Of a stretch of DNA of 64,000 nucleotides, positions 26,055-64,000 are shown in pieces; positions within the stretch are counted from its first letter, which is position 1, and each line of letters opens with the position of its first letter. Made by a program: the position numbers and the translations under genes. The notes beneath the pieces were generated by a model that had not been told where the DNA came from, ran no database searches, and was given only the letters and a program-made list of their open reading frames with translations. The stretch is taken from the NCBI RefSeq assembly GCF_058153355.1, contig NZ_CM177019.1, one strand, 5' to 3'.

Positions 26055-26534
26055 ATGATGCTCGCGTTAGGTATGTTTGTTTTTATGCGCCAGACGCTGC
26101 CACACCAGACCATGCAGCGTGAATCAGATTATCGCTGGCCGTCAAATTCCCGTATCGGCAAACGGGATGCCTTTCAGTTTCTCGGTGTGGGTGAGGAAAA
26201 CATTACGCTTGCCGGTGTGCTTTATCCCGAACTGACCGGCGGGAAGCTGACGATGACCACGCTCAGGCTGATGGCAGAGGAAGGCCGGGCGTGGCCGTTG
26301 CTGGATGGCTCCGGCATGATTTATGGCATGTATGTCATCAGCAGGGTGAATGAAACAGGGAGTATTTTCTTTGCAGACGGCACACCCCGGAAAATTGATT
26401 TTACGCTGTCGCTCACCCGCGTTGATGAATCACTGGCCGCGCTTTATGGCGATATCGGTAAACAGGCGGAGTCGCTCATCGGTAAGGCCGGCAGTCTGGC
26501 GACCAGATTCACAGGTATGACGGGGGCGGGATAA
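26055..26534 (+). CDS. U: Tail protein gpU
   Basis: 159 aa; P2 position. Confidence 0.8.
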   Translation: MMLALGMFVFMRQTLPHQTMQRESDYRWPSNSRIGKRDAFQFLGVGEENITLAGVLYPELTGGKLTMTTLRLMAEEGRAWPLLDGSGMIYGMYVISRVNETGSIFFADGTPRKIDFTLSLTRVDESLAALYGDIGKQAESLIGKAGSLATRFTGMTGAG

Positions 26535-27697
26535 TGCTGGATGCGCTGACATTTGATGCAGGCAGTACGCTGACGCCGGATTACATGCTGATGCTCGACA
26601 GCAGGGATATTACCGGCAATATCAGCGACCGTCTGATGAGCATGACCCTGACGGATAACCGGGGCTTTGAGGCTGACCAGCTTGATATTGAACTGAACGA
26701 TGCCGACGGGCAGGTCGGGCTGCCGGTTCGTGGCGCTGTCCTGACGGTGTATATCGGCTGGAAAGGTTTTGCCCTGGTATGCAAAGGAAAATTCACCGTT
26801 GATGAGGTAGAACACAGGGGCGCGCCGGATGTGGTCACCATCCGTGCCCGGAGTGCAGATTTTCGCGGGACGCTCAATTCCCGCCGGGAAGGCTCCTGGC
26901 ATGACACCACGCTCGGTGCGATTGTTGAAGCGATAGCCTCCCGTAACAGGCTGGAAGCCAGTGTCGCGCCGTCACTGGCAGGAATTAAAATCCCGCACAT
27001 CGACCAGTCGCAGGAGTCTGATGCGAAATTCCTGACCCGTCTTGCAGAACGCAACGGCGGTGAGGTGTCGGTAAAAATGGGAAAACTGTTGTTTCTCAAA
27101 GCGGGGCAGGGGGTGACGTCCAGCGGTAAAAAAATCCCGCAGATTACCATCACCCGCAGCGACGGCGACCGTCATCATTTTGCGATTGCTGACCGTGGAG
27201 CCTATACCGGCGTAACGGCAAAGTGGTTACACACCAAAGACCCGAAGCCGCAAAAGCAGAAGGTAAAACTGAAACGCAAAAAGAAAGAGAAACACCTGCG
27301 CGCACTGGAGCACCCGAAAGCGAAACCAGTCACGCAGAAGAAAGCGCCAAAAGTACCGGAAGCGCGCGAAGGTGAATACATGGCCGGTGAGGCTGACAAC
27401 GTTTTTGCACTGACCACGGTATATGCCACGAAAGCACAGGCCATGCGCGCCGCTCAGGCGAAGTGGGATAAACTGCAACGGGGCGTTGCGGAGTTCTCCA
27501 TCAGCCTGGCTACTGGTCGGGCAGATATTTACACGGAAACACCGGTCAAAGTGTCTGGCTTTAAGCGCGTCATAGACGAGCAGGACTGGACAATCACTAA
27601 GGTGACACACTTTCTGAATAATAGTGGCTTCACGACGTCCTTAGAACTTGAGGTAAGGCTTTCTGATGTGGAGTACGAAACAGAAGATGATGAGTGA
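26534..27697 (+). CDS. D: Late tail protein gpD
   Basis: 387 aa; P2 position (K-12 keeps a remnant of this gene as yegZ). Confidence 0.85.
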   Translation: MLDALTFDAGSTLTPDYMLMLDSRDITGNISDRLMSMTLTDNRGFEADQLDIELNDADGQVGLPVRGAVLTVYIGWKGFALVCKGKFTVDEVEHRGAPDVVTIRARSADFRGTLNSRREGSWHDTTLGAIVEAIASRNRLEASVAPSLAGIKIPHIDQSQESDAKFLTRLAERNGGEVSVKMGKLLFLKAGQGVTSSGKKIPQITITRSDGDRHHFAIADRGAYTGVTAKWLHTKDPKPQKQKVKLKRKKKEKHLRALEHPKAKPVTQKKAPKVPEAREGEYMAGEADNVFALTTVYATKAQAMRAAQAKWDKLQRGVAEFSISLATGRADIYTETPVKVSGFKRVIDEQDWTITKVTHFLNNSGFTTSLELEVRLSDVEYETEDDE

Positions 27698-27778
27698 TAT
27701 CTTTTATTTATCTGTTTGTTTTATAAGGATAAATTAACTAAAATGACACCATCAACAAAACCGGAAGAGGTGCTCGCG

Positions 27779-27997
27779 ATGTTTCATTGTCCTTTATGCC
27801 AGCATGCCGCACATGCGCGTACAAGTCGCTATATCACTGACACGACAAAAGAGCGTTATCACCAGTGCCAGAACGTGAATTGCAGCGCCACGTTCATCAC
27901 TTATGAGTCGGTACAGCGATACATCGTGAAGCCGGGAGAAGTCCACGCCGTAAGGCCGCACCCGTTGCCGTCAGGGCAGCAAATTATGTGGATGTAA
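27779..27997 (+). CDS. ogr: Late-gene transcriptional activator Ogr (zinc finger)
   Basis: 72 aa from MFHCPLCQHAAHARTSRY (track ORF starts at 27716); CxxC...CxxxxC zinc-binding pattern. Confidence 0.85.
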   Translation: MFHCPLCQHAAHARTSRYITDTTKERYHQCQNVNCSATFITYESVQRYIVKPGEVHAVRPHPLPSGQQIMWM

Positions 27998-28098: not shown

Positions 28099-28125
28099 AA
28101 AAAATAAGCCCGTGTAAGGGAGATT
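28099..28125. other. attR: Prophage attR core (P2 att core sequence)
   Basis: aaaaaataagcccgtgtaagggagatt matches the P2 att core as I recall it; coincides with the cyaR terminator. Confidence 0.6.
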
Positions 28126-28185
28126 ACACAGGCTAAGGAGGTGGTTCCTGGTACAGCTAGCATTTTATGGGTTATGTTTTTCAGC
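28099..28185 (-). ncRNA. cyaR: Hfq-dependent sRNA CyaR (RyeE)
   Basis: Minus-strand sequence gctgaaaaacataacccataaaatgctagctgtaccaggaaccacctccttagcctgtgtaatctcccttacacgggcttatttttt matches CyaR from memory, with terminator hairpin and U-run; downstream of yegQ as in K-12. Confidence 0.8.
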
Positions 28186-28219
28186 GAAACGGATGATAAC
28201 CTTAATAAATGCAGCTGTA

Positions 28220-28269: not shown

Positions 28270-29631
28270 TCACTTACCGTGGGGGTTACGCGTGGTTTCC
28301 CCGGAGAAATTACGCATCAGCAGCGCGTAATTTAGCTCAAGATCCTGCGGGACCGGGATCCACACAGTATAACCATCGCCCGGTGCGACCGGCATTGCTT
28401 CGCCTTTGGCGTTTTCCATATGCTCAAGGGTAAAGTTAATGTTCCCTTGCGGCGTCATCAGCTCAAGGCTGTCGCCAACGGAGAATTTATTTTTCACCGC
28501 TACCGCCGCGAGGTCGCCCTTGCGCTCACCGGTAAACTCACCAACAAACTGCTGGCGGTCAGAAACTGAATAACCGTATTCGTAGTTCTGATAATCGTCG
28601 TGAGTATGACGACGCAGGAAACCTTCGGTATAGCCACGATGCGCCAGACCTTCCAGAGTTTCCAGCAGGCTGGTATCGAATGGTTTTCCCGCAGCTGCGT
28701 CATCGATAGCTTTACGGTAAACCTGCGCGGTGCGTGCGCAATAGTAGAAAGATTTTGTACGACCTTCGATTTTCAGCGAATGCACGCCCATTTTGGTCAG
28801 GCGTTCAACGTGGGCGATAGCGCGCAGATCTTTCGAGTTCATGATGTAAGTGCCGTGCTCATCTTCAAACGCGGTCATATACTCGCCCGGACGCTGAGCT
28901 TCTTCGATCATAAACACTTTGTCGGTTGGCGCGCCGATACCCAGCGTCGGCTCAACATTTTGCACCGGAATCGGCTCGTACTTGTGCACGATGTTGCCAA
29001 CGTCATCTTCTTTCCCTTCCTGGACGTTGTACTCCCAGCGGCAGGCGTTGGTGCAGGTGCCCTGGTTCGGGTCGCGCTTGTTGATATAGCCAGAGAGCAG
29101 GCAGCGACCGGAGTAGGCCATGCACAGCGCGCCGTGAACGAAGATCTCTACCTCCATATCCGGCACCTGATTGCGGATCTCTTCAATCTCTTCCAGCGAC
29201 AGCTCGCGAGAGAGGATCACGCGGGTCAGGCCCATTTGCTGCCAGAATTTCACCGTCGCCCAGTTCACGGCGTTAGCCTGTACCGAGAGATGGATCGGCA
29301 TTTCAGGGAAGTGCTCACGCACCAGCATAATCAGCCCTGGATCGGACATTATTAGCGCATCCGGCCCCATTTCCACCACCGGTTTCAGGTCACGGATAAA
29401 GGTTTTCAGCTTGGCGTTGTGCGGTGCAATGTTGACCACAACATAAAACTTTTTCCCCAGCGCATGGGCTTCATTAATGCCGAGCTGGAGATTTTCGTGG
29501 TTGAATTCGTTGTTTCGCACACGCAGGGAGTAACGCGGCTGGCCCGCATAAACAGCATCTGCGCCATAAGCGAAAGCGTAACGCATATTTTTCAGCGTTC
29601 CCGCCGGGGAAAGGAGTTCCGGTTTAAACAT
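28270..29631 (-). CDS. yegQ: Peptidase U32-family protein YegQ (TrhP)
   Basis: 453 aa, sequence recognised as YegQ; K-12 synteny. Confidence 0.9.
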   Translation of the reverse strand: MFKPELLSPAGTLKNMRYAFAYGADAVYAGQPRYSLRVRNNEFNHENLQLGINEAHALGKKFYVVVNIAPHNAKLKTFIRDLKPVVEMGPDALIMSDPGLIMLVREHFPEMPIHLSVQANAVNWATVKFWQQMGLTRVILSRELSLEEIEEIRNQVPDMEVEIFVHGALCMAYSGRCLLSGYINKRDPNQGTCTNACRWEYNVQEGKEDDVGNIVHKYEPIPVQNVEPTLGIGAPTDKVFMIEEAQRPGEYMTAFEDEHGTYIMNSKDLRAIAHVERLTKMGVHSLKIEGRTKSFYYCARTAQVYRKAIDDAAAGKPFDTSLLETLEGLAHRGYTEGFLRRHTHDDYQNYEYGYSVSDRQQFVGEFTGERKGDLAAVAVKNKFSVGDSLELMTPQGNINFTLEHMENAKGEAMPVAPGDGYTVWIPVPQDLELNYALLMRNFSGETTRNPHGK

Positions 29632-29836
29632 AATTCTCTCGTTCTGATGACAGGTCAGATCCGCTTCACCTGATGAAGCGGTTGGGGGAGTGCCCCCACT
29701 TTAAGGGCGGGCATTGTAGCGCAATCGGTGGGGTTGACTCCAGTGACAATGTTAAGGGAAAGACTGAGCGCATTTATTTCGTTTTGATTCCGATAGTCGT
29801 CAGGTTCAATTGTTATCAGTTGACCTTAATTTGGTG

Positions 29837-30574
29837 TTAAAGAAAGGGAATATAACCCCATAACTTGTTGTGAAGTTCCGGATTGCGGGTAAAAAGCGCC
29901 TGAAGTTGCTGACGCTGAGGAGCATTTGGTTGAATGCCCGAAAGATTGAATTTGCGTTGCCATATTGCGAGCTGTTTACCTGCAAATTCTTCAGTTAGCT
30001 TGTGTTGCGATTGCAGCAGAAGAATTAAACCGTCCCATTTGTTCAAACTATGATAAAGCCGACAATATGCGCAAGCATGTTTAACTGAAGGTGCGTTTTC
30101 CTGCAACTGCCGTATTTCCTCGAACGTGAGCGGAACGCGACACCATACACAGATGTTAACCATTAATCGCAGCCCGGTAGCGTCCGGGTTTGCCAGTGTG
30201 CTGAGAATAGTCTTTTTGACATCGCCATCAGGATTATCTTTTGCAAGAATGTGCATTGCGGCTAAACGCAGTGGGAATACATTCTGAGATAATCCCCATT
30301 CTGCCAGTTTTAAAATATTGGCATCATGAATGGAGTCCAGCCCGTATAAAGCTGCCCGGCGCTGTGAGGGAGTATATTCAGTCGAGGTGACAACATGACG
30401 CCAGAATTGCACAACATCCATGACGTCATTAAGCATGTTTTTAGCGCGTAGACGGATCAACATATTGTTATCCAGCAGTAATGCGCTGTACAACTCCGGA
30501 GGAATTTCTATAGCTCGGTCAGTAAGGCTAAACAACGTTGCTTGTCGAATTTGCGGGCGGTTATTTTCTGTCAA
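29837..30574 (-). CDS. Hypothetical protein, helical-repeat-like N-terminus and two CxxC pairs
   Basis: 245-aa ORF; CVWC and CAYC pairs near the C-terminus (CxxC-x30-CxxC); not recognised; lower GC than flanks by eye. Confidence 0.45.
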   Translation of the reverse strand: MTENNRPQIRQATLFSLTDRAIEIPPELYSALLLDNNMLIRLRAKNMLNDVMDVVQFWRHVVTSTEYTPSQRRAALYGLDSIHDANILKLAEWGLSQNVFPLRLAAMHILAKDNPDGDVKKTILSTLANPDATGLRLMVNICVWCRVPLTFEEIRQLQENAPSVKHACAYCRLYHSLNKWDGLILLLQSQHKLTEEFAGKQLAIWQRKFNLSGIQPNAPQRQQLQALFTRNPELHNKLWGYIPFL

Positions 30575-30614
30575 TAAGAATCTAAGTATCTTTAATCATT
30601 TCATCCCGGTCTGC

Positions 30615-31334
30615 TCAATCGACACGAAGGTAAGGGCCGTCTGCACTAACGTTGGCCCCGAAACCGCAGTCGTTCGGCGTATTGGTGCTTACTTCAAGCG
30701 TTTCGGTAGTAAGTTTGAGAGCAATATTGCAGTGAATCATATTGTCTGCATCATCACGCAATGCAATTACGCCTGTACCATTGTTCAGCGTTACAGATTC
30801 AGAAAACTCACCGATATTTGGCCCACTGTAAATGCCCATCATACCAAAGTAATAACCCTGAAAATCTACCTGCATCTTGCCTGTTAACCGCGCGGGTTTA
30901 AAGATGAACGTATTCCATGTCGCTTTGACCGCGTAGCTCCAGTATTCATTGGTTGTTGAAAAATCAGAGGGCAAAGCTGCGAGATTATCTTTGATAAGTT
31001 GCAAATTGTAGATGGATTTGGAATCTTGCGGTAGAAGCATGAGCCAGGCACGGGCTTTGCGCCATTGATTCTCACGCATCCAGGTTAGTGCGACATTGTT
31101 ATAAGCCGTGGCGATCGCTTTCTCATCATTAGCTTTACAGTCTTCACTCCATGCGGCTTGCTGTTCGAAGTATTTGCGTGCCGCAGGGTAGTTTTTCGCT
31201 TTATACAATGCCTGCCCCTGGCTTGCATACATGGTGATTTTCGCGCAATCAGCGTTAATTTGCTCGTCAGTTATCTCAGCATGTGCATTAGCCGACAATA
31301 GCAAAACTAAAGATATGACAAAGGGTAATTGCAT
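30615..31334 (-). CDS. Hypothetical secreted protein (signal peptide)
   Basis: About 239 aa from MQLPFVISLVLLLSANAHA (track ORF extends to 31427); not recognised. Confidence 0.45.
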   Translation of the reverse strand: MQLPFVISLVLLLSANAHAEITDEQINADCAKITMYASQGQALYKAKNYPAARKYFEQQAAWSEDCKANDEKAIATAYNNVALTWMRENQWRKARAWLMLLPQDSKSIYNLQLIKDNLAALPSDFSTTNEYWSYAVKATWNTFIFKPARLTGKMQVDFQGYYFGMMGIYSGPNIGEFSESVTLNNGTGVIALRDDADNMIHCNIALKLTTETLEVSTNTPNDCGFGANVSADGPYLRVD

Positions 31335-31432
31335 GTTAAATCCATTTAAAGTGAATAATTCCAGTCGTGATAGTATCGCCGTAAGAGGCGGAAATAAAGC
31401 CGGACGCCAACAACCCACGCCCGGCATCGTAA

Positions 31433-31765
31433 TTACGTATTGTCTTTCACCGTCTGGCTTGTGCCATTGGCTTTAACGGAGGCAATTCCGGTTTCACGAG
31501 ATTGCGCGGTGGCGTACATCTGGCTGGAGCCGATAATTTGATGATTGGCGGCTTTCAGATTGAAATAGAATTTGCCGTTGCTTGCCGTTTTTTTCTCATA
31601 GCGTTCTTCTTGCGGGCTGTTGCTACGTACCGACGCGATGCCCTTTTCCGCAGAGGCTTTTGAGGTATACAGCTCGCTGGTGAGGATAGTCTCACCATTG
31701 CCCGCTTTTAGCACAAACCGGAATTGATTATCACTGCTCTTACTGAGTTCAAACCAACCAGCCAT
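31433..31765 (-). CDS. yegP: DUF1508-family protein YegP
   Basis: 110 aa from MAGWFELSKSSDNQFRFVLKAGNGE with two internal repeats; K-12 synteny. Confidence 0.85.
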   Translation of the reverse strand: MAGWFELSKSSDNQFRFVLKAGNGETILTSELYTSKASAEKGIASVRSNSPQEERYEKKTASNGKFYFNLKAANHQIIGSSQMYATAQSRETGIASVKANGTSQTVKDNT

Positions 31766-31944: not shown

Positions 31945-32667
31945 TTAAACGATGCGGCAGGCGTCGGCTTCCCAGCGATAACCGACACCGTAGACGGCGC
32001 GGATAAAAGACTGCTCTTCGTCCAGAGCTTCCAGCTTGCGACGCAGGTTTTTAATGTGGCTGTCGATGGTGCGGTCAGTTACTACGCGGTAGTCGTCATA
32101 AAGGTGGTTCAACAACTGCTCGCGGGAGAACACTTTTCCTGGTTCATGAGAGAGTGTTTTCAGCAGACGAAATTCCGCAGGCGTCAGGTCAAGCATTTTA
32201 CCGCGCCATGAAGCCTGAAAACGACCTTCGTCGATAATCAACGGGCTTTCAGCATCCTGTTGCTGCAACTCGCGCTGCGGTTTGCAACGGCGCAAAATGG
32301 TTTTGACGCGCGCTACCACTTCCCGTGGGCTGTACGGCTTGCAGATATAATCATCTGCGCCAATCTCCAGTCCGAGCAGGCGGTCTATCTCTTCGATTTT
32401 TGCCGTCACCATCACGACAGGAACATCGGAAAAACGACGAATCTCCCGACACAACGTCAGGCCATCGGTGCCAGGGAGCATCAGATCCAACAGGATCAGA
32501 TCCGGTGGTGTCTGGCGCACATATGGCAGTACCTGATCGCCGTGGCTGATAAGCGTCGGCGCATAGCTCGCAGCACGCAGATAATCAATAAGCAACTGCC
32601 CCAGCTTCGGTTCATCTTCCACGATCAAAATACGTGGCGTGTTTTCGTCGATTGGTAACTCGGTCAT
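31945..32667 (-). CDS. baeR: Response regulator BaeR (OmpR family)
   Basis: 240 aa, receiver domain plus winged-helix domain; overlaps baeS. Confidence 0.95.
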
Positions 32668-42927: not shown

Positions 42928-43124
42928 CGTTAAGAGTTTCTCTTCCTGAAACGTTTCGCGGAATGATACTAGTGTAGCCAGCCAATAAGGGAGAAAAATG
43001 GAGGAATTATGAAACACTGTCGGGAATCGTCTGAATGACGGGCACTTTTGCGAGCACGCATCCAGTAATAACACAGGAAACTATTTTATCTACGCGTTAG
43101 CGATAGACTGCATTAAGGGCAAAA

Positions 43125-43265
43125 GGAGGTAGGCCGACGATTTCAGCGGGACGCTGAAACGGGAAAGCCCCTCCCGAGGAAGGGGCCTTAAATAAGGAAA
43201 GGGTCATGATGAAGTGGATCATCATCGTGGTGCTCTTAGTCGTTAGCTACCCAGCTTACTAAGAC
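43125..43265 (-). ncRNA. sib: Sib antisense sRNA (antitoxin) overlapping ibs copy 1; ends approximate
   Basis: By established knowledge Sib RNAs (~140 nt) are encoded antisense to and fully overlap ibs; boundaries not determinable here. Confidence 0.35.
43206..43262 (+). CDS. ibs: Ibs-family small hydrophobic toxin peptide (MMKWIIIVVLLVVSYPAY)
   Basis: 18-aa ORF in repeat unit 1; resembles IbsA/IbsB of E. coli. Confidence 0.7.
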   Translation: MMKWIIIVVLLVVSYPAY

Positions 43266-43452
43266 TACCAGGGCGGGGGAAACCCCGCTCAACCCTCACT
43301 CCTGAAAATATGCCTTCACGGTCAGAATGTCAATCCGCAGGCTTTGCAGTCTGCGATCCTGCCAGCAAATATTCTTTGCGAGTCGTTACGCAATAATCAC
43401 AGATGAAACTATTTTATCTAAGCGTTAGCGATAGACTGCATTCAGGGCAAAA

Positions 43453-43593
43453 GGAGGTAGGCCGACGATTTCAGCGGGACGCTGAAACGGGAAAGCCCCT
43501 CCCGAGGAAGGGGCCTTAAATAAGGAAAGGGTCATGATGAAGATACTCATCATCGTGGTGCTCTTAGTCATTAGCTTACCGGCTTACTAAGAC
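43453..43593 (-). ncRNA. sib: Sib antisense sRNA overlapping ibs copy 2; ends approximate
   Basis: As for copy 1. Confidence 0.35.
43534..43590 (+). CDS. ibs: Ibs-family small hydrophobic toxin peptide (MMKILIIVVLLVISLPAY)
   Basis: 18-aa ORF in repeat unit 2. Confidence 0.7.
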   Translation: MMKILIIVVLLVISLPAY

Positions 43594-43780
43594 TACCAGG
43601 GCGGGGGAAACCCCGCTCTACCCTCACTCCTGAAAGTATGCCTTCACAATCAGATTGTCAATCCGCAGGCTTTGTAGTCTGCGATCCTGCCAGCAAATAT
43701 TCTTTGCGAGACGTTACGCAATAATCACATGTGAAACTATTTTATCTGCAAGTTAGCGATAGACTGCTTGCATGGCGAAA

Positions 43781-43921
43781 GGAGGTAGGCCGCCGATTTC
43801 AGCGGGACGCTGAAACGGGAAAGCCCCTCCCGAGGAAGGGGCCTTAAATAAGGAAAGGGTCATGATGAAGCTACTCATCATCGTGGTGCTCTTAGTTATT
43901 AGCTGGCCAGCTTACTAAGAC
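43781..43921 (-). ncRNA. sib: Sib antisense sRNA overlapping ibs copy 3; ends approximate
   Basis: As for copy 1. Confidence 0.35.
43862..43918 (+). CDS. ibs: Ibs-family small hydrophobic toxin peptide (MMKLLIIVVLLVISWPAY)
   Basis: 18-aa ORF in repeat unit 3. Confidence 0.7.
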   Translation: MMKLLIIVVLLVISWPAY

Positions 43922-44135
43922 TACCAGGGCGGGGGAAACCCCGCTCTACCCTCACTCCTGAAGTTATGTTACTCCACCCTTATTGTCAATCTGTAAGTCC
44001 ACGTTCTTGCGGGGCGAATAGCAAAACCCTCTGCGCTTATGGGCCGAATTCTGAAAGTTGCTTTGCCTGCTCTTATTTCATTATTGCAGTCGGTATGATA
44101 CCGGACCTCAATAATTCTCTAAGAAAGGATTTCTT

Positions 44136-50682: not shown

Positions 50683-53600
50683 TCAGTTAATCGCGAAATA
50701 ACTGCTATTCACCAGCAAATCCAGCGGTTGGGCATCGGCAATCACATCGCCATAAATCAGATCGACGCCGATGCCAGAAAGCGTATCCATCACTAAGGGT
50801 AAAACAACTGGCCCGGCGATAGTCTTCACCCCGAGTCGCTGAGCGTGCCCCTGAATAATCGTAATCAGCATCTCATCCATCAAATTACCCTGCACGCTGG
50901 CGCATAGCTCACCGTCAAGTAGCAGGTAATCTGCCATATTCGCTTTCAGCGTGTTGAAAATTTGCAGATCGCGACCCACCTGGCTGAGCACTATCCGACA
51001 TCCCGCCAGCCGTAGTTTTTGCACGCTTTCTGCGTGATCGAAAACCGCTTCTGCCGGAATAATCAGATGTAATAACCGTGGTGGTAGAGGGTTATTTTCC
51101 AGTTGCTCAAGCAGTTCATTCACCAGCGCGGCGCTACTCAAGCCGGCAACAGAAAGGGGGAGGGCGATGCTTAAGCCTTTACTGGCAATCGCTTTTGCGG
51201 TCTGCTGGAAAAATTCATGGAGTACCCGGCGGTCAAGAGCATGGTTAAGCGCCGGATCACCGAAGCTACGACGAAATGTTTGTTCATCAAAAATCTCGCC
51301 TTCGCAACCCCAGAGTTTTAGTGATATCAACCACAAATTACGCGCTTCCGGGATCCGTGGCGAAGCGACGCCGTGGGCGATCATCATCAACTGATTCTCT
51401 TTAATCATCCGCCACTGTTCATCAATCGACATCGCCGCCCGTTCGCTATGTGCGTCAGCTTGCTGCGGTTCGTAAACTGTCACCCGGCCGCGGCCACCAT
51501 TTTTGGAGGCATAACAGGCGATGTCAGCCTGCGACATCACTTCAACCGCCTGATGATTGTTGTCATCAATCAAGGTAATCCCGGCACTGGCACCTACCCG
51601 ATGTACACGTCCTTCCCATATAAAGTGATAGTCATTCACGGCGCTGATAATGCGTGTAGCGATAAAACGCGCACTTTCGACATTACAATCTGGCAGCAGC
51701 AGACCAAATTCATCGCCACCGAGTCGCGCAAGTACGTCGCTGGAGCGCAGCATACTCAGCATCAATGACGCCAGTTCGCGCAACAAAGCGTCGCCAGCGG
51801 CGTGTCCGGCGCTGTCATTCACCGCTTTAAAGCGATCAAGATCGATAAACACCAGGGCATGTCGCTGATGTGTACTGTTTACCGTTTGCAGCAGGATGCG
51901 TAGTTGCTTCTCAAAACTGGCGCGATTGGCGAGATGCGTCAGTGCATCATGGGAGGCGCTGTAGCTCAGCTGGCGCAGCATTTTGCGTGATTCGGTGACG
52001 TCCTGAATCACCAGAACCGAGCCTATATTGCTGCCGTCCAGAGTACTTAACGGTGTAATACTGTAATGCACGTCGTAGCTGCCGCCGCTCCGGCAGTGCA
52101 ACACCACATCTTGTTCAATCGCAGAACGTGAGGTGTCGGCACTGTAAATGTTCTCCATTAATGGCCCGTTGTCGCCAAAAGTAATATGCAACACCGTCAG
52201 GAGCGGAACACCTAACGCTTCTTCCTGCGTCCAGCCGCTCATCTTCTCCGCCACTGGATTCATAAAGGTAATTTTCATCGCCATGTCAATACAGACCACG
52301 GCTTCGCCGATGGAGTCCAGCGTAATATGCAGGCGCTCTTTTTCCTGAAACAGTGCCTCGTTAAGCTGTTTCACTTCAGTCATATCCATATTGATGCCAA
52401 GCAGGCGTTCAACTTCGCCTTCTTTATTCAGTACCCGGTTAGCGAGGGCGCGGATATGGCGAATACCGTCTTTCACGGTAATGCGAAATTCCAGTTTAAA
52501 GGGAGAGCGCGATTGCAATGAATCGCGAATCACTTTTTCGGCGTGCTGGCGATCTTCCGGCAGCACGCACTCGTACCACACCTGCCAGTTCGGTTTGATA
52601 TGCGGAGGAATTTCATACAGCTCGAACATCCGCTTATCCCAGCTAAAAATATTCGGCTTTAGCTCCCACTCCCAGATGCCAATCCCGCCCGCTTCGTTAG
52701 CCAGCGTGATGCGCTCCATCAGTTGCTGGTTCACCTGTTCGGTGCGTTTTAGCTCGTTAATGTCTTCAATCTGAGCGATAAAATAGAGCGGCGTACCATC
52801 GGTGTGGCGCACTAGTGAGACGGCAAGCAACGCCCAGACAACATCGCCATTGCGGTTGTAGTAGCGTTTTTCCATTGAATAGGTGTTTATTTCACCGCTT
52901 ATCAGCTTTTCAACCTGTTGCAGATCTTTATTGAGATCCTCCGGCCAGGTCAGTTGCTGAAAGGTGAGTCCGCGCAGTTCTTCCTGACTGTAACCGAGAA
53001 ACTGGCAGAGCGCTTTGTTGGATTGCAGCCATTGCCCCTCGGTGCCCACTAATGCCATGCCGATGGCGGAATATTCCATCGCGTTCCGAAAACGGGTTTC
53101 GCTTTCGGAAATGTGTTTGCGTTCCGCACGAAAGGCATACATCACCATCGTCATGATGTTGGCGGGCAGCAGGATCAGTAAAAACGGTAGCCACGGCATA
53201 TGGCTCATCAGGTACGTCCGCGGCGTAGCAAGCAGGGAGGGATCCGCGGCCATCATCAGCGACACCATCATCACCGTGGTAAGGAAAATCAAAAAGGCTT
53301 CCATTCGTGGCAGGCGCACGGCGCTCCACATCAGCAGCACAATAATGAAAGTAAAAGGCCACGGTAGATACAGCATCGAAAGCCAGCTTAACGTCAGTGT
53401 GATGGCTAACGTGAGCAGTGACTCAAAAAGCAACCTTGGGTTGCGATGGCGCAGCAGATAGTGTGGTTTAAATAACAATCCCAGCGGCACCAGTGCCAGG
53501 GCGCCGATGGATTCTGACAGTACCCATATCAAAAATGCCCTGAGAGGATCGTCTCCGGGCGTCAGCAGGACAACCAGAACACCCCCTAACAGAGGTGGAA

Positions 53601-54000
53601 CAATGGCGCTGCCGAATGCCAGACGCAGCCAGTCAGCCAGATTTTGCAATGGGTTATACCACGGCAGCAATTTACGCAGTAGCACTGCCCCGACCACGGC
53701 TTCAACAATATTGATGGTCGTCCAGGTCATGTTCAGCGAGCTGGTGGAAAAAAGCAGGATGGATGCGGCGATATTTCCCAGCGAGCAGCTCAGCGCTATT
53801 CCCGGCCACATGCGCCCGGCATGGCGATAAAACGCCACCATCATGATGGACGTCGGGAACCACAGTGGGGCGAGTTGGGTGCCAAACTGCGAAAGCTCAA
53901 GCGAGAAAAGGGTAAAGATAAACGAGACTAAACCTAAACTGACCAGGTGAAGCAGCGGGTGGGGCAGGGCAATTAATACATGCTGTGATTGTTTGCTCAT
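50683..54000 (-). CDS. dgcE: Diguanylate cyclase DgcE (YegE): membrane MASE1, PAS, GGDEF and EAL domains
   Basis: 1105 aa, GGDEF motif (RLGGDEFGLLL), N-terminal multi-TM region. Confidence 0.9.
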   Translation of the reverse strand: MSKQSQHVLIALPHPLLHLVSLGLVSFIFTLFSLELSQFGTQLAPLWFPTSIMMVAFYRHAGRMWPGIALSCSLGNIAASILLFSTSSLNMTWTTINIVEAVVGAVLLRKLLPWYNPLQNLADWLRLAFGSAIVPPLLGGVLVVLLTPGDDPLRAFLIWVLSESIGALALVPLGLLFKPHYLLRHRNPRLLFESLLTLAITLTLSWLSMLYLPWPFTFIIVLLMWSAVRLPRMEAFLIFLTTVMMVSLMMAADPSLLATPRTYLMSHMPWLPFLLILLPANIMTMVMYAFRAERKHISESETRFRNAMEYSAIGMALVGTEGQWLQSNKALCQFLGYSQEELRGLTFQQLTWPEDLNKDLQQVEKLISGEINTYSMEKRYYNRNGDVVWALLAVSLVRHTDGTPLYFIAQIEDINELKRTEQVNQQLMERITLANEAGGIGIWEWELKPNIFSWDKRMFELYEIPPHIKPNWQVWYECVLPEDRQHAEKVIRDSLQSRSPFKLEFRITVKDGIRHIRALANRVLNKEGEVERLLGINMDMTEVKQLNEALFQEKERLHITLDSIGEAVVCIDMAMKITFMNPVAEKMSGWTQEEALGVPLLTVLHITFGDNGPLMENIYSADTSRSAIEQDVVLHCRSGGSYDVHYSITPLSTLDGSNIGSVLVIQDVTESRKMLRQLSYSASHDALTHLANRASFEKQLRILLQTVNSTHQRHALVFIDLDRFKAVNDSAGHAAGDALLRELASLMLSMLRSSDVLARLGGDEFGLLLPDCNVESARFIATRIISAVNDYHFIWEGRVHRVGASAGITLIDDNNHQAVEVMSQADIACYASKNGGRGRVTVYEPQQADAHSERAAMSIDEQWRMIKENQLMMIAHGVASPRIPEARNLWLISLKLWGCEGEIFDEQTFRRSFGDPALNHALDRRVLHEFFQQTAKAIASKGLSIALPLSVAGLSSAALVNELLEQLENNPLPPRLLHLIIPAEAVFDHAESVQKLRLAGCRIVLSQVGRDLQIFNTLKANMADYLLLDGELCASVQGNLMDEMLITIIQGHAQRLGVKTIAGPVVLPLVMDTLSGIGVDLIYGDVIADAQPLDLLVNSSYFAIN

Positions 54001-54317
54001 TACCGCTTTATCCGCAAGGCCTGGTCGCCAGTATTCGTTTCTGTGTTTATGCTAGTACAAAAGTTTTACATTTTATATGCGAATTGCTCATAAAGTGACG
54101 TAAAGGCGGATAATTTGCGCAACTGCGTATAACATTTTTTACCTTGTATAAAACTGATCAACGTAATTTGCCACCGGGAATTATTCGTCAACAATTAACT
54201 CTGAGCGCGCGGCAACGCTATTCGACTGGTATCAGGCGGATGAAATCCCTATAATTGCCGCGTTTGGCGCTTCGTCGCCCCCTTCCTAACATCCAGGTTA
54301 ATCAGGTCGCTAAATAT

Positions 54318-54959
54318 ATGACTGATCAGTCTCATCAGTGCGTCATTATCGGTATCGCTGGCGCATCGGCTTCCGGCAAGAGTCTTATTGCCAGTACCCT
54401 TTATCGTGAATTACGTGAGCAAGTCGGTGATGAACACATCGGCGTAATTCCCGAAGACTGCTATTACAAAGATCAAAGCCATCTGTCGATGGAAGAACGC
54501 GTTAAGACCAACTACGACCATCCCAGCGCGATGGATCACAGCCTGCTGCTTGAGCATTTACAAGCATTGAAACGCGGCTCGGCAATTGACCTGCCGGTTT
54601 ACAGCTATGTTGAACATACGCGAATGAAAGAAACGGTGACGGTTGAGCCGAAGAAAGTCATCATTCTCGAAGGCATTTTGCTGCTGACGGATGCGCGTTT
54701 GCGTGACGAACTTAACTTCTCAATTTTCGTTGATACCCCGCTGGATATCTGCCTGATGCGCCGCATCAAGCGTGATGTTAACGAGCGTGGGCGTTCAATG
54801 GATTCAGTGATGGCGCAATATCAAAAAACTGTGCGCCCGATGTTCCTGCAATTCATTGAGCCTTCTAAACAATATGCGGACATTATCGTGCCGCGCGGCG
54901 GGAAAAACCGCATTGCGATCGATATATTGAAAGCGAAAATAAGTCAGTTCTTTGAATAA
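54318..54959 (+). CDS. udk: Uridine/cytidine kinase
   Basis: 213 aa from [22 protein letters not shown] (P-loop); track ORF starts at 54255. Confidence 0.95.
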
Positions 54960-55050
54960 GCTTGATAAATTGTGTACCGTTCAGTGATAACCTGGTATGC
55001 CCTTGACGTAATTGGCGTTAAGGGAGTGATGCGCGAAAGGAGAAAATGCC

Positions 55051-55632
55051 ATGCGTCTGTGTGACCGAGATATTGAAGCCTGGCTTGATGAAGGCCGTTT
55101 GTCGATCAACCCACGTCCGCCAGTGGAGCGTATTAACGGCGCGACGGTGGATGTACGCCTGGGCAATAAATTTCGTACCTTCCGTGGTCACACGGCAGCG
55201 TTTATCGATCTGAGCGGTCCCAAAGATGAAGTGAGCGCCGCGCTTGACCGCGTGATGAGCGATGAGATCGTTCTCGACGAGGGCGAGGCGTTCTATCTTC
55301 ACCCAGGAGAGCTGGCGCTGGCGGTGACGCTGGAGTCGGTGACGCTGCCAGCCGATCTGGTGGGCTGGCTGGACGGGCGTTCCTCTTTGGCGCGTCTGGG
55401 GCTGATGGTGCACGTCACCGCGCACCGCATCGATCCGGGCTGGTCTGGCTGCATTGTGCTGGAGTTCTACAACTCCGGTAAGCTGCCGCTGGCGCTGCGT
55501 CCGGGCATGTTAATTGGTGCGCTGAGCTTTGAGCCGCTTTCCGGCCCGGCGGCGCGACCTTACAACCGCCGTGAAGATGCGAAATATCGCAACCAGCAGG
55601 GCGCGGTAGCCAGCCGAATCGATAAAGACTAA
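55051..55632 (+). CDS. dcd: dCTP deaminase
   Basis: 193 aa; K-12 synteny udk-dcd-asmA. Confidence 0.95.
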
Positions 55633-55653
55633 TTCAGGCCCATTGAGGATACC

Positions 55654-57507
55654 ATGAGACGATTTCTGACGACGCTGATGATACTCCTGGTCGTGCTGGT
55701 GGCCGGATTATCTGCGTTAGTGTTGCTGGTGAATCCGAATGATTTCCGCGACTATATGGTCAAGCAAGTTGCTGCACGTAGCGGTTATCAATTGCAGCTC
55801 GACGGGCCACTGCGTTGGCACGTCTGGCCGCAGCTTAGTATCCTCTCCGGGCGAATGTCTCTCACCGCCCAGGGCGCGACCCAGCCACTGGTTCGCGCCG
55901 ACAACATGCGCCTGGACGTGGCGCTTTTACCACTACTGAGTCATCAACTGAGCGTTAAGCAGGTGATGCTAAAAGGGGCAGTGATCCAACTGACGCCGCA
56001 GACGGAAGCGGTGCGCAGTGAAGACGCTCCGGTTGCACCTCGCGACAATACCTTGCCGGATCTGTCAGACGATCGCGGATGGTCGTTTGATATATCCAGT
56101 CTTAAGGTGGCGGACAGCGTTCTGGTGTTCCAGCATGAAGATGACGAGCAGGTGACAATCCGCAATATCCGCCTGCAAATGGAACAAGATCCCCAACATC
56201 GTGGCTCATTTGAGTTCTCCGGGCGGGTTAATCGCGATCAGCGCGATCTCACGATATCCCTTAACGGTACGGTAGATGCTTCTGATTATCCGCATGATTT
56301 AACGGCGGCTATTGAACAAATTAACTGGCAGTTGCAGGGTGCAGATTTACCAAAACAAGGTATTCAGGGGCAGGGGAGTTTCCAGGCCCAGTGGCAGGAG
56401 TCACATAAACGCCTTTCATTTAACCAAATTAGTTTGACCGCCAATGACAGTACGCTGAGCGGGCAAGCACAGGTTACGCTGACAGAGAAACCGGAATGGC
56501 AGCTGAGGCTGCAATTCCCGCAACTGAATCTTGACAACCTCATCCCGCTTAATGAAACCGCGAATGGTGAAAACGGTGCCGCGCAGCAGGGGCAGAGCCA
56601 ATCAACGTTGCCGCGCCCGGTTATTTCTTCGCGTATTGATGAACCGGCCTATCAGGGACTGCAAGGCTTTACGGCTGATATTTTGTTGCAGGCCAGTAAC
56701 GTGCGCTGGCGCGGAATGAATTTTACAGATGTTGCCACGCAAATGACCAACAAGTCGGGTCTGCTGGAAATTACTCAACTACAGGGCAAGCTTAACGGTG
56801 GACAGGTTTCACTGCCGGGCACGCTGGACGCGACATCAATAAATCCGCGGATAAACTTCCAGCCACGGCTGGAAAACGTTGAGATTGGTACCATTCTGAA
56901 GGCGTTTAACTATCCGATTTCGTTGACCGGAAAAATGTCACTGGCTGGTGATTTCTCCGGTGCTGACATAGATGCCGACGCATTCCGCCACAACTGGCAA
57001 GGACAGGCACATGTCGAAATGACCGACACGCGCATGGAAGGGATGAACTTCCAGCAGATGATTCAGCAAGCGGTAGAACGTAATGGTGGTGATGTGAAGG
57101 CCGCTGAAAACTTCGATAACGTAACGCGTCTTGACCGCTTTACCACCGATTTGACGTTGAAGGATGGCGTCGTGACGTTAAACGACATGCAAGGTCAATC
57201 GCCTGTGCTGGCGCTTACAGGGGAAGGCATGTTGAATCTGGCAGATCAAACCTGCGACACCCAGTTTGATATTCGGGTCGTGGGTGGCTGGAACGGGGAA
57301 AGCAAACTGATTGATTTCCTCAAAGAAACGCCAGTACCGCTGCGGGTTTATGGCAACTGGCAGCAACTCAATTACAGTCTGCAAGTGGATCAGTTACTGC
57401 GCAAACATCTACAGGACGAAGCGAAACGTCGCCTGAATGACTGGGCCGAGCGGAATAAAGATTCCCGCAATGGCAAAGATGTGAAGAAGTTGCTGGAGAA
57501 GATGTAG
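55654..57507 (+). CDS. asmA: Outer-membrane protein assembly factor AsmA
   Basis: 617 aa with N-terminal TM anchor. Confidence 0.92.
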   Translation: MRRFLTTLMILLVVLVAGLSALVLLVNPNDFRDYMVKQVAARSGYQLQLDGPLRWHVWPQLSILSGRMSLTAQGATQPLVRADNMRLDVALLPLLSHQLSVKQVMLKGAVIQLTPQTEAVRSEDAPVAPRDNTLPDLSDDRGWSFDISSLKVADSVLVFQHEDDEQVTIRNIRLQMEQDPQHRGSFEFSGRVNRDQRDLTISLNGTVDASDYPHDLTAAIEQINWQLQGADLPKQGIQGQGSFQAQWQESHKRLSFNQISLTANDSTLSGQAQVTLTEKPEWQLRLQFPQLNLDNLIPLNETANGENGAAQQGQSQSTLPRPVISSRIDEPAYQGLQGFTADILLQASNVRWRGMNFTDVATQMTNKSGLLEITQLQGKLNGGQVSLPGTLDATSINPRINFQPRLENVEIGTILKAFNYPISLTGKMSLAGDFSGADIDADAFRHNWQGQAHVEMTDTRMEGMNFQQMIQQAVERNGGDVKAAENFDNVTRLDRFTTDLTLKDGVVTLNDMQGQSPVLALTGEGMLNLADQTCDTQFDIRVVGGWNGESKLIDFLKETPVPLRVYGNWQQLNYSLQVDQLLRKHLQDEAKRRLNDWAERNKDSRNGKDVKKLLEKM

Positions 57508-57509
57508 GT

Positions 57510-57580
57510 TACCAGGTGACCTGTCCTGTAGGCCTGATAAGACGCGTAAAGCGTCGCATCAGGCGTTCGCGGCGGCACCA
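57510..57580. repeat. REP element
   Basis: cctgtaggcctgataagacgcgtaaagcgtcgcatcaggcg motif. Confidence 0.55.
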
Positions 57581-57958
57581 TTATATTCTGAATATGTAAG
57601 ATCGAAGGCTGTTCCGTTCACTTGATGTTCCTCGCTACTATGGAACGCTCAAGCCGGTGAACGTGCCAGGGTGGCTCAATCGCCACCACCCTGGCAACCC
57701 GGGCTCCCGGCGGTAAATCGCCGCTGGCGCGGTTCCCTCATCTTATTCCTTTCGGCTATCGGGTACGGGCGCGAGGTAACATCCCTGTAAAACGCGCCCT
57801 CAGCCCACATCCATGTGGGCTGCCCCGGCCTACAGGAAACGATTCGGCGATTTACAGCCGGACCCACACCCCCGCTGTAATGTCCATGTACCACAGACAA
57901 CGCTTCATTGCTGAAGTTATAAGGCGTCACGCAGCATCGGGTAAAATGACCGATACCA

Positions 57959-59542: not shown

Positions 59543-60010
59543 AGTAAGTACAAAACCTATTCGTTGTATGACAAATGTCACAATTCGATCATGGATAAAT
59601 CGGGGCAAAAATGCAATGTTGCAGCACTATTTATCTCATATTATTTGAGGGTAATAACCTCACATTATCCCTGAATTAAAAGTGGTAATAATAAAACATT
59701 ATTTAAGAAATATCGCATGTGGAGGCGCAATATTAAATATTGTCAACCTAAAGAAACTCCTAAAAACCATATTGAATGACACTTAATATAATTCTTAAAA
59801 ATAGCCAATTGCCGAATTGTTACCTTGCCTGCTATTCCGTTAGCTGTAACACTTCCTCCTGCATTATTGGAGAGCCAATATTCAATTACCATAATGTCAC
59901 CTTATATTCGGAAGTTAATTTCCGCAATAACCCTTGCTCATCAACGATTGTATGCAGAGAGGGTTTGAAAAATTAAGCTAAATCAGTGTGTTGGTAGCTA
60001 AAAAGCCAGG

Positions 60011-60022
60011 GGCGGTAGCGTG
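60011..60022 (+). promoter_or_regulatory. ops element (GGCGGTAGnnTG) of a JUMPstart sequence in the wza leader, RfaH antitermination site
   Basis: ggcggtagcgtg about 180 nt upstream of wza. Confidence 0.65.
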
Positions 60023-60200
60023 TCTGGATGCCTGAAAGACCAGTCTGAATTATTCTGTCAATAGCCTGCGGATGAAATCAATTTTTTTAGGACTGATGCC
60101 AGTTAAATTTTTATTCAATTAACTGCAAGGTAAATGTGCATGGCGACATTGCTATTAATAGTGCACAGGATAATTACTCTGCCAAAGTGATAAATAAACA

Positions 60201-61340: not shown

Positions 61341-61345
61341 TCGTC

Positions 61346-61789: not shown

Positions 61790-61791
61790 GA

Positions 61792-63954: not shown

Positions 63955-63957
63955 TGA

Positions 63958-64000
63958 CGCCTGCATTCGCACCGCCCCGTAGGCCGGATAAGGCGCTCAC
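63958..64000. repeat. REP element (partial at window end)
   Basis: cgcctgcattcgcaccgccccgtaggccggataaggcgctcac. Confidence 0.5.

Follow-up and report, generated by a model that had tools for sequence, protein, structure and literature searches.

In Salmonella, the 'yegQ locus' carries the islet SAIDI-1, in which putative orphan immunity genes (T6SS/CDI) are arrayed (Barretto and Fowler 2020, PMC7400221). The same study placed homologues of the islet end genes at this locus in other gamma-proteobacteria without the islet, and a HEAT-repeat gene, SPC1578, next to the Rhs/PAAR genes of the Paratyphi C islet (PMC7400221). Beyond this study we found no literature on the locus. The segment analysed here comes from a 64,000-nucleotide stretch of contig NZ_CM177019.1 (assembly GCF_058153355.1), hereafter the window. 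It contains two open reading frames, ORF-A and ORF-B, and lies at the same chromosomal site as SAIDI-1, between the baeSR side and yegQ.

Like the Salmonella locus, the window has a t0736-like tetratricopeptide repeat (TPR) gene between yegQ and the baeSR-side gene. Its product, ORF-B, shares 62% identity with the 239-aa TPR protein of Salmonella that is encoded beside the DUF4034 gene at one islet end; t0736 (TPR) was equated with this counterpart by position and description and not by its own sequence. At the other end no t0721-like gene adjoins yegQ in the window, whereas one is present in the genomes L001 and L010, and the 201-aa protein of these sister alleles is 45% identical to the product of the Salmonella gene adjoining yegQ. 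The low-GC orphan immunity array is absent from the window, where the sole interior gene is the remnant of a HEAT-repeat gene. Unlike Salmonella, in which the order is baeR, PcfJ, DUF1266, DUF4034, TPR, islet, 205-aa gene and yegQ, the window has yegP and carries no DUF1266, DUF4034 or PcfJ genes. We conclude that the 1.7-kb segment is probably one allele, now partly decayed, of a long-standing and variable cassette site in the baeR-yegQ interval, and neither a toxin-immunity pair nor a mobile island.

Boundaries and occupants of the site

The first-pass annotation had described two same-strand ORFs of lower GC content between two genes that are adjacent in K-12, and each of these points was borne out. 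ORF-A and ORF-B both lie on the minus strand, 40 bp apart, between yegQ and yegP (Table 1). The GC content is 0.41-0.47 over 29750-31400, against 0.50-0.59 in yegQ and 0.52-0.55 in baeR. By BLAST boundaries, window positions 29723-31398 stand in place of ~21 bp of spacer in K-12-type genomes, where yegP and yegQ are neighbours and the site is empty. Homology to the K-12-type genome L003 extends up to 29722, in the yegQ upstream region, and resumes at 31399, within the terminator-like hairpin of yegP. An identical hairpin lies 3' of baeR in L010, a genome without yegP. The spacer next to the yegQ upstream region (29723-29836) holds the position which the gene for the 201-aa exported protein occupies in L001 and L010. 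The bae/mdt side of the segment is a divergent tract of ~20 kb.

Table 1. Features of the yegQ-yegP interval and its flanks, in window coordinates
Feature	Position	Strand	Evidence
yegQ/trhP, peptidase U32 family tRNA hydroxylase, flanking core gene	28270..29631	-	Pfam, annotations
yegQ upstream region common to K-12-type genomes; has GCGCTACAATGCCCGCCC and -10-like TACAAT	29632..29722	-	BLAST boundaries, junction alignment
Spacer 3' of the HEAT-gene stop, matching L019-type E. coli (intact HEAT gene)	29723..29836	-	BLAST boundaries, junction alignment
ORF-A, 3' remnant of HEAT-repeat gene, probable pseudogene	29837..30574	-	protein alignment, DNA boundaries
41-bp island of HEAT-gene sequence between two deletions, ancestral codons ~143-156, ...ILRFLLTENNRPQ	30551..30591	-	DNA boundaries, alignment
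ORF-B/HEAT intergenic spacer and kept HEAT start-codon region, ATGAAATGATTAAAG	30592..30614	-	sequence, alignment
ORF-B, intact, 239 aa, exported TPR and beta-barrel protein	30615..31334	-	homologues, annotation, AF2 model
C-terminal 8-stranded up-and-down beta-barrel, ORF-B residues 129-237; invariant C202, C223	30624..30950	-	
TPR-like helical domain, ORF-B residues 23-119; invariant C30, C66; motif ATAYNNVALT	30978..31268	-	
Predicted signal peptide of ORF-B, residues 1-19, cleavage after AHA	31278..31334	-	sequence, homologue alignment
ORF-B upstream region; -10-like TACTAT at 31370-31375 within motif ACGGCGATACTAT	31335..31398	-	alignment
Intrinsic-terminator-like hairpin 3' of yegP, GCCGGGCG...CGTCCGGC then TTTATTT	31392..31425	-	hairpin scan, alignment
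yegP, DUF1508, 110 aa, flanking core gene	31433..31765 (alternative end 31804)	-	Pfam E = 2.5e-45, annotations

As the genes had been proposed to be accessory and missing from K-12, we looked at the occupancy of the site in 5,426 complete E. coli genomes, of which a single one carries the TPR gene with the insert. The site is empty in ~64% of these genomes, holds a ParDE cassette in 1,845 (34%), a HEAT gene in 98 (~2%) and the TPR gene with the HEAT remnant in ~0.02%. In ~2% of E. coli the HEAT gene between yegP and yegQ is intact, with an annotated length of 1,401 bp, and of the 98 genomes with a HEAT gene 97 have no TPR gene; in some alleles a ParD fragment lies 3' of it. ParDE is a recognised toxin-antitoxin pair, which the window ORFs are not, and its proteins are unrelated to theirs. 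The full cassette, in the order baeR, TPR, HEAT (465 aa), 201-aa exported protein and yegQ, was found in the divergent Escherichia lineage L010, and L010 and L015-L018 have intact TPR and HEAT genes side by side. In most E. coli the cassette genes are gone and yegP is present, with or without the ParDE pair.

Chance ORFs are not an issue here because ORF-A and ORF-B both have clear homologues. The dN/dS values across the ORF-B and HEAT families (0.1-0.35) indicate that both encode proteins, and the constraint is looser than in baeR or yegQ. Neither product is characterised, in line with the first-pass annotation, which had listed both genes as unrecognised.

The gene pair had also been called compatible with a small accessory island, of which the accessory nature stands and the island character does not. 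No significant repeats flank it, and the interval has no integrase or transposase genes. Matches in the plasmid collection were few (ORF-B, 5 records; HEAT gene, 4, weak or partial), four of the five ORF-B records being from Acinetobacter (0.5-4 Mb) and the fifth a 302-kb Salmonella record with mdtBC-baeSR-yegQ. We take these mostly very large, chromosome-like matches as chromosomal sequence rather than plasmid cargo, and on these grounds a mobile island was rejected. In the history that we propose, the baeR-yegQ interval would anciently have been occupied by a gene of the ORF-B family, and the segment would be the remains of this ancestral resident. The window allele has yegP together with an intact ORF-B, and two deletions have cut its HEAT gene. 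The segment probably reached or persisted in the strain via homologous recombination of the flanking core DNA, and it is ordinary gene-content variation.

ORF-B is a predicted exported protein with TPR-like and barrel domains

ORF-B belongs to a family named 'tetratricopeptide repeat protein' in RefSeq, with 58 homologues and a presence in at least 188 gamma-proteobacterial species (188 species genomes). The family numbers some 400 members or more and was met on at least 242 contigs. An alignment of 39 homologues revealed 29 invariant positions including four cysteines, and the dN/dS of ORF-B is 0.13-0.35. A longer frame of 270 aa, from an ATG at 31427, was rejected as it starts inside the yegP terminator hairpin and is supported by neither homologues nor RefSeq. 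The protein begins with MQLPFVISLVLLLSANAHA, followed by E past the cleavage point, which is the pattern of Sec export with no lipobox cysteine. The hydrophobic N-terminus ending in small-x-small (A-x-A) is kept across the 39 aligned homologues, in agreement with the signal peptide that had been predicted for the 239-aa protein; the n-region of the Escherichia copies is without a basic residue.

The AF2 model (pLDDT 89.8, pTM 0.84) has three TPR-like helix-turn-helix hairpins stacked as a right-handed superhelix, followed by an 8-stranded up-and-down antiparallel barrel of the calycin/lipocalin-like type. ORF-B stays below the curated Pfam cut-offs for TPR (TPR_2, 21.8 bits against 27; TPR_12, 19.9 bits against 30.1), and some of its homologues do have precomputed TPR matches. 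No Pfam or NCBIfam model is specific to the family, and no Pfam family covers the barrel, which bears the motifs YGPNxG and CGFGxNVxAxGxYxRV. A search with the barrel domain alone brought up no informative fusion, its matches all being short stand-alone homologues that lack annotation.

Among known proteins, the periplasmic or envelope TPR proteins YbgF/CpoB (TPR domain 2xev), LpoP (6w5q) and YfgM (8zht) are structural neighbours of ORF-B. They have no significant sequence similarity to it and no partner domains in common, and none has its C-terminal barrel. The likeness is that of the general TPR fold, for which the best structural matches are eukaryotic TPR proteins. The barrel resembles the C-terminal domain of D-aminopeptidase 1ei5, lipoprotein 3lhn, PBP-associated lipocalin-like domains and avidins. 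Against such small 8-stranded barrels the identity is 4-18%, with no common motifs and no match of functional residues, so that the similarity is at fold level only, and YGPNxG and CGFGxNV are specific to the ORF-B family.

ORF-B is predicted to be a Sec-exported periplasmic protein in which a TPR module packs on an 8-stranded barrel, and two disulfides (C30-C66 and C202-C223) probably link its four invariant cysteines. The term envelope-associated, which the first-pass annotation had offered for the pair, is reasonable for ORF-B. The TPR groove may accommodate a partner, either protein or peptide, and the barrel may bind a peptide or small ligand, and we tentatively propose a periplasmic binding or adaptor protein with its own weak promoter 3' of the yegP terminator. 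The TACTAT element upstream could belong to this promoter, judging from its sequence; the motif around it is seen repeatedly in alignments at cassette boundaries of the locus. A consensus promoter scan upstream of ORF-B gave nothing above chance and no convincing sigma-70 promoter, and the Shine-Dalgarno ahead of the gene is weak (GGA).

The locus in other genera and possible roles of ORF-B

In Escherichia, ORF-B corresponds to the gene found after baeR in Citrobacter, Kosakonia, Phytobacter and others, for which baeR-TPR-yegQ is a frequent simple order. Through comparison of 77 species loci, we found baeS-baeR directly upstream on the same strand in 19, from 9 Enterobacteriaceae genera. Most of the 77 loci have the TPR gene without any HEAT gene, and in Serratia, Rahnella, Pantoea and Pseudomonas it stands alone. 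Genes conserved next to it are baeSR/mdtD and yegQ, along with those for a YddA-like ABC transporter and for MBL-fold and DsbA-like proteins.

As the Salmonella array of putative T6SS/CDI immunity genes is bounded by homologues of ORF-B and of the 201-aa protein (PMC7400221), ORF-B, and ancestrally the HEAT gene too, might be orphan immunity proteins against T6SS, CDI or Rhs effectors with which competing bacteria attack the periplasm or the cytoplasm, and the site an immunity-gene depot like the one proposed for SAIDI-1. ORF-B fits such a role in being small, exported and probably disulfide-bonded, and its family is patchily distributed, often lost or truncated, and evolves 4-10 times faster than the neighbour genes. 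The HEAT gene fills the interior slot used by immunity genes in Salmonella, and SPC1578 provides a HEAT-repeat gene in Rhs/PAAR company. However, no toxin, effector, Rhs, PAAR or VgrG gene is a conserved neighbour in the 77 species loci, and the synteny across 9 genera suits a resident gene better than shuffled cargo. When ORF-A, ORF-B, the 201-aa protein and the full-length HEAT protein were scanned with PADLOC, NCBIfam and Pfam, no immunity family matched and the matches were to generic repeats only, on which grounds a toxin/immunity or defence assignment was rejected. A YibA-like Rhs immunity identity of the 465-aa HEAT protein is likewise unsupported, as neither PDB nor NCBIfam gave it a match to YibA-type sequences; the context of its distant homologues P0065 and P0067 was uninformative. 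We therefore consider the immunity role unlikely.

Slightly less likely still is that ORF-B serves as an accessory periplasmic part of the Bae/MdtABCD efflux locus, transcribed with or regulated by BaeSR. The idea draws on the position of the gene directly 3' of baeR, on the same strand and at a gap of 56-104 bp, in L010, L015-type contigs, Citrobacter, Kosakonia and Phytobacter and also in Superficieibacter, Buttiauxella and Enterobacter, and on Yersiniaceae, where the gene adjoins that of another envelope transporter, the YddA-like ABC transporter. Yet a terminator hairpin lies between baeR (or yegP) and ORF-B, three unrelated genes intervene between baeR and the TPR gene in Klebsiella and Salmonella, and in Pantoea and Pseudomonas the gene is found in unrelated contexts. 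Scanning of the whole window for the BaeR box (TTTTTCTCCATDATTGGC) with up to 3 mismatches gave two matches only, at 42981-42998 (mdtA promoter, 1 mismatch) and 52148-52165 (3 mismatches), so that none is near ORF-B and within the bae/mdt region the box occurs only upstream of mdtA. Moreover, nearly all E. coli are without ORF-B, and synteny within one family can be inherited without being functional. That the ORF-B family is a hitherto unrecognised periplasmic factor with a specific role, whether a novel class of immunity or inhibitor proteins against periplasm-acting antibacterial effectors or a BaeSR/Mdt accessory, is unlikely, and the decayed cassette allele is the reading that we retain.

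ORF-A is the remnant of a HEAT-repeat gene

From 30553 downward, ORF-A aligns with residues 228-465 of a HEAT-repeat protein of 465-466 aa and thus comprises the last 238 codons of its gene, with ~51% kept and ~48% deleted. It is 90-97% identical to the C-terminal 238 residues of the intact E. coli HEAT proteins (WP_311820414.1, WP_045145364.1, WP_078405621.1), whose genes share its site and orientation. Those genes are intact at 466 codons, whereas the window copy is deleted and out of frame from the true start. It lacks codons ~6-142 (~137 codons) and 157-227 (71 codons, 213 bp, with ~6 bp overlap at the junction). The HEAT start codon survives at ~30596-30605 and runs into a stop 2-6 codons on, from either ATG, because ~137 and then 71 codons are deleted; no intact frame of ~465 codons extends from the conserved start in the window. 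The 245-aa ORF-A is a mechanical ORF, and its TTG 'start' at 30574 was a Leu codon inside the ancestral gene. The full-length orthologue passes the Pfam thresholds (HEAT_2, 34.2 vs 27.7; HEAT, 29.6 vs 23.5) at residues 56-107 and 218-238, in its N-terminal and middle parts. ORF-A alone yields no HEAT match in Pfam, and its link to the family is the 89-97% identity to the C-terminal half.

The first-pass annotation had presented ORF-A as a 245-aa protein with two CxxC pairs. The CVWC and CAYC motifs are present, but the frame is not a complete gene. All four cysteines are replaced (LILRY, SAYYR) in L015, an orthologue of 62% identity, so they do not form a conserved metal site and a metal-binding CxxC site in ORF-A was rejected.

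ORF-A very probably makes no functional product. It could still work as a shortened HEAT protein of 208-245 aa, made from an internal start on a transcript shared with ORF-B, for the frame stays open over 245 codons, an NCBI third-party annotation (P0002) has a CDS of 208 aa that matches ORF-A residues 38-245 exactly, and dN/dS against intact relatives is 0.2-0.3. This ratio, however, mostly records divergence predating the deletions, and no Shine-Dalgarno sequence precedes the TTG or Met38 on inspection of the sequence. The deleted ~48% of the repeat solenoid includes the part above the Pfam HEAT thresholds, and the sole sister copy, in L001, already carries an extra nonsense codon. Activity of the fragment is hence improbable. 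That the two ORFs make up a functional secreted and cytoplasmic module, such as the toxin/immunity-like pair proposed earlier, is highly improbable: their close same-strand spacing, the export of one product alone and the adjacency of the intact genes in L010 and L015-L018 would suit it, but a pair is unsupported because ORF-A is a truncated, 5'-deleted remnant, the two genes occur independently in most genomes, unlike a toxin-antitoxin pair, no toxin domain was found in either family (Pfam, PADLOC, NCBIfam), no toxin-like neighbour is conserved, and in L001 ORF-B is intact beside the interrupted ORF-A. The earlier assignment of one product to export and of the other, ancestrally, to the cytoplasm is supported.

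Conclusions

The analysis corrects the annotation of the interval, with ORF-A as a probable pseudogene fragment and ORF-B as a predicted exported TPR-barrel protein, the orthologue at the t0736 position, and it draws attention to a widespread, uncharacterised family of putative periplasmic proteins. The practical value is modest, and the current understanding of mechanism is unchanged. Should an immunity or Bae role of ORF-B hold after all, the baeR-yegQ site would serve the Enterobacteriaceae at large as a depot of genes of this kind. The site and the Salmonella 'yegQ locus', with its SAIDI-1 immunity islet, are homologous, and the yegP-yegQ junction of E. coli is a multi-allelic cassette site, with five alleles, in which ORF-B, missing from K-12, is probably the older resident and yegP the newcomer.

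Extent and context of the insert

The match between the window and a K-12-type genome (L003) stops at 29722 and resumes at 31399, with ~21 bp between both matches in that genome, and these ends define the insert (see table). The flanks were matched in 5,423 of the 5,426 complete E. coli genomes and the insert was covered in a single one (NZ_AP027764.1, the sister allele L001), which bears out the first-pass annotation in regarding the DNA between yegQ and yegP as absent from K-12. The GC content of this interval is 0.41-0.47 against 0.50-0.59 in the flanks. A search for repeats flanking the insert found none, and the few matches in the plasmid collection were mostly on very large, chromosomal-looking records.

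Elsewhere in the window, a full-length P2-like prophage adjoins the gene for the sRNA CyaR, immediately to the left of yegQ; only remnants (ogrK/yegZ) are left in this attachment region in K-12, and strain E7-1N7 has the same prophage end. Three tandem SIB antitoxin RNA copies (136-140 bits) lie between mdtA and yegL, where a K-12-type comparison genome has two annotated Ibs toxins.

Coordinates of features in the window and, where named, in comparison loci
Feature	Coordinates	Strand	Remark
P2-like prophage	1-28000		gpD 26534-27697; ogr 27716-27997
cyaR	28102-28187
yegQ/trhP	28270-29631	minus
Insert	29723-31398
ORF-A	29837-30574	minus	245 codons starting at TTG
HEAT-gene island	30551-30591		41 bp
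HEAT start-codon region	about 30592-30606		ATGAAATGATTAAAG; retained together with the ORF-B stop and 10-nt spacer
ORF-B	30615-31334	minus	239 aa; carried on to 31427 in mechanical ORF list
Boundary hairpin and motif sites	31392-31425, 31370-31382, 29700-29722; L010 5940-5990
yegP	31433-31765	minus
baeR	31945-32667	minus	baeS also minus
BaeR-box match	42981-42998		1 mismatch; upstream of mdtA, as expected
SIB copies	43191-43333, 43519-43661, 43847-43989		Rfam RF00113
JUMPstart element	59984-60022		upstream of colanic-acid wza cluster
201-aa gene	L001 4434-5039; L010 8159-8764
205-aa gene, Salmonella	L110 21671-22288		t0721 position
PcfJ-like/DUF1266/DUF4034 trio	L011 1958-5996; L110 7899-11939
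ParD/ParE pair	L002 1835-2429		E. coli CUVET17-1418
Split TPR and HEAT genes	L030 3125-5329		Escherichia sp. MOD1-EC7003

Conservation and predicted fold of ORF-B

As judged from its relatives, ORF-B, which encodes the putatively exported TPR and beta-barrel protein, is an intact, conserved gene. It has 58 word-indexed homologues and relatives in 188 species-representative genomes, including Enterobacteriaceae (Citrobacter, Kosakonia, Phytobacter, Buttiauxella, Superficieibacter, Enterobacter, Intestinirhabdus, and Escherichia sp. MOD1-EC7003 with 89% identity), Yersiniaceae and Hafniaceae (Serratia, Rahnella, Rouxiella, Ewingella, Hafnia), and Erwinia, Pantoea, Pseudomonas, Alkanindiges and Aeromonas. 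The dN/dS values of ORF-B (0.13-0.35) and of the HEAT gene, the intact relative of ORF-A (0.09-0.38), compared with baeR (0.03-0.085) and yegQ (0-0.06), indicate that both genes do encode proteins and that purifying selection acts on them in relaxed form.

The family alignment has 29 invariant positions, four of which are cysteines (C30, C66, C202 and C223), and a conserved hydrophobic N-terminus with A-x-A at its end. The protein would be exported through Sec and probably has two disulfides. In the AlphaFold model (pLDDT 89.8, pTM 0.84), a signal helix is followed by a helical domain of three hairpins (residues 23-119) and a barrel of eight strands (129-237). Apart from sub-threshold TPR matches, the protein fits no family of Pfam, NCBIfam or PADLOC. 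Stand-alone homologues of the barrel, ~150 aa long and all without annotation (P0239-P0356; E from around 1e-9 to 1e-37), also occur in metagenomes from soil and elsewhere, among them Blastocatellia MAGs. With a TPR groove and a barrel pocket, ORF-B may tentatively be regarded as a periplasmic binder or adaptor.

Relation to the Salmonella yegQ locus and alleles of the site

The Salmonella 'yegQ locus', between yegQ and a ~700-aa gene (t0737/STM2135), harbours SAIDI-1, in which genes for putative orphan T6SS/CDI immunity proteins form an array; its end genes t0736 (weak TPR match) and t0721 have normal GC, are 'commonly found at the yegQ locus' of other islet-less gamma-proteobacteria and were suggested to be of distinct origin and function (Barretto & Fowler, PMC7400221). 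The annotated Salmonella record (L110) has the same frame. ORF-B shares 62% identity with the TPR protein encoded there and therefore represents, in Escherichia, the gene of the t0736 position. Identity between the yegQ-adjacent 205-aa protein of Salmonella and the 201-aa protein of E. coli amounts to 45%, and the interior slot of this frame is held by the HEAT gene in Escherichia. That ORF-B is an orphan immunity protein is doubtful, its two supports being the character of the Salmonella locus and the fast, patchy evolution of the gene; the lack of any effector neighbour speaks against it.

Neighbour clustering over 77 species loci placed the TPR gene (the ORF-B family) directly downstream of baeS-baeR, and co-oriented with them, in 19 loci, which represent nine genera of Enterobacteriaceae. 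Their frequent order is simply baeR-TPR-yegQ-yegS, so that ORF-B occupies the slot taken by yegP in K-12. In 30 loci (Serratia, Rahnella, Rouxiella, Ewingella, Hafnia) the TPR gene is divergent from a YddA-like SbmA/BacA ABC transporter gene, and in Pantoea and Pseudomonas it stands alone in unrelated contexts. The synteny would agree with an accessory role in the Bae locus, but the terminator and the non-Bae contexts, together with the missing BaeR box, make such a role improbable.

The site is polymorphic. An Escherichia metagenome contig (L010) lacks yegP and reads baeR-TPR-HEAT(465)-201 aa(opposite strand)-yegQ; contigs L015-L018 read baeR-TPR-HEAT(468)-ParD-yegQ; and Klebsiella and Salmonella read baeR-PcfJ-like-DUF1266-DUF4034-TPR-...-yegQ. 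The conserved trio adjoining the TPR gene (399, 238 and 703 aa, respectively) is also carried by some Citrobacter and Buttiauxella. Among the 5,426 complete E. coli genomes, ParDE occupies the site in 1,845 (34%), the HEAT gene in 98 (blastn with the insert alone as query) and the TPR gene in one. ParD/ParE is a type II toxin-antitoxin pair, and some alleles (L015, L021) have a ParD fragment behind the HEAT gene. The gene for the exported 201-aa protein, which gave no Pfam/NCBIfam match, adjoins yegQ on the opposite strand in sister E. coli alleles and is absent from the window. In the cryptic-clade species representative MOD1-EC7003, the TPR gene is seemingly split into ORFs of 110 and 154 aa and the HEAT gene into ORFs of 233 and 232 aa, suggesting that the cassette is decaying there too.

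ORF-A as a remnant of the HEAT gene

Only five relatives of ORF-A were present in the database, and one of them (P0005) led to contigs with a longer HEAT-repeat gene between yegP and yegQ, entered in RefSeq as an intact 1,401-bp gene for a 'HEAT repeat domain-containing protein'. By protein alignment ORF-A equals residues 228-465 of this 465-aa protein, and the 245-aa gene of the first-pass annotation is thus a fragment. DNA comparisons and junction alignment delineated its anatomy: the sequence is kept from the ORF-B stop through a 10-nt spacer to the HEAT start-codon region, ~137 codons are then deleted, an island (ancestral codons about 143-156) follows, and after a second deletion of 213 bp (71 codons) the gene continues to its normal stop at 29837. 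A stop is reached 2-6 codons from the retained HEAT ATGs, and the apparent start of ORF-A is an internal Leu codon, TTG by chance, without a Shine-Dalgarno. The sole sister copy (L001) has both deletions in common and one extra nonsense codon.

The full-length protein lies above the Pfam HEAT_2 and HEAT thresholds (ORF-A by itself gives no Pfam HEAT match). The cysteines of the CVWC and CAYC pairs of ORF-A are not kept in the L015 orthologue (62% identical). The full-length protein belongs to a large bacterial HEAT family of about 440-550 aa, whose 1,677 cluster representatives (E <= 1e-3) are without further annotation. ORF-A is very probably non-functional; activity of the shortened form is quite unlikely, and a functional pair of ORF-A and ORF-B, as first envisaged, is highly improbable.

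Cassette boundaries and possible recombination

A terminator hairpin (GCCGGGCG...CGTCCGGC-TTTATTT) followed by a promoter-like 'CACnGCGnTACnAT' motif marks the cassette boundaries in all of the arrangements listed for the site. In L010 it follows baeR, in E. coli it follows yegP, and in K-12 it precedes yegQ. A deletion between two motif copies could have given rise to the K-12 arrangement, and the recurrence of the hairpin after baeR and after yegP would imply an insertion of yegP itself between baeR and the terminator of baeR. The bae/mdt flank from 31399 to ~52 kb (baeSR-mdtABCD onward) is only 90-96% identical to K-12-type E. coli, compared with 98-99% for 53000-64000 and 97.5-98% for yegQ. 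This ~20-kb divergent tract adjoining the insert is perhaps recombinant, and it fits upkeep or import of the window allele by homologous recombination.

The segment represents genuine, ordinary accessory-genome variation. It is one of the alleles of a known variable locus, rare and in decay, and comprises a pseudogene fragment and the gene of an exported protein that is uncharacterised, though annotated before.
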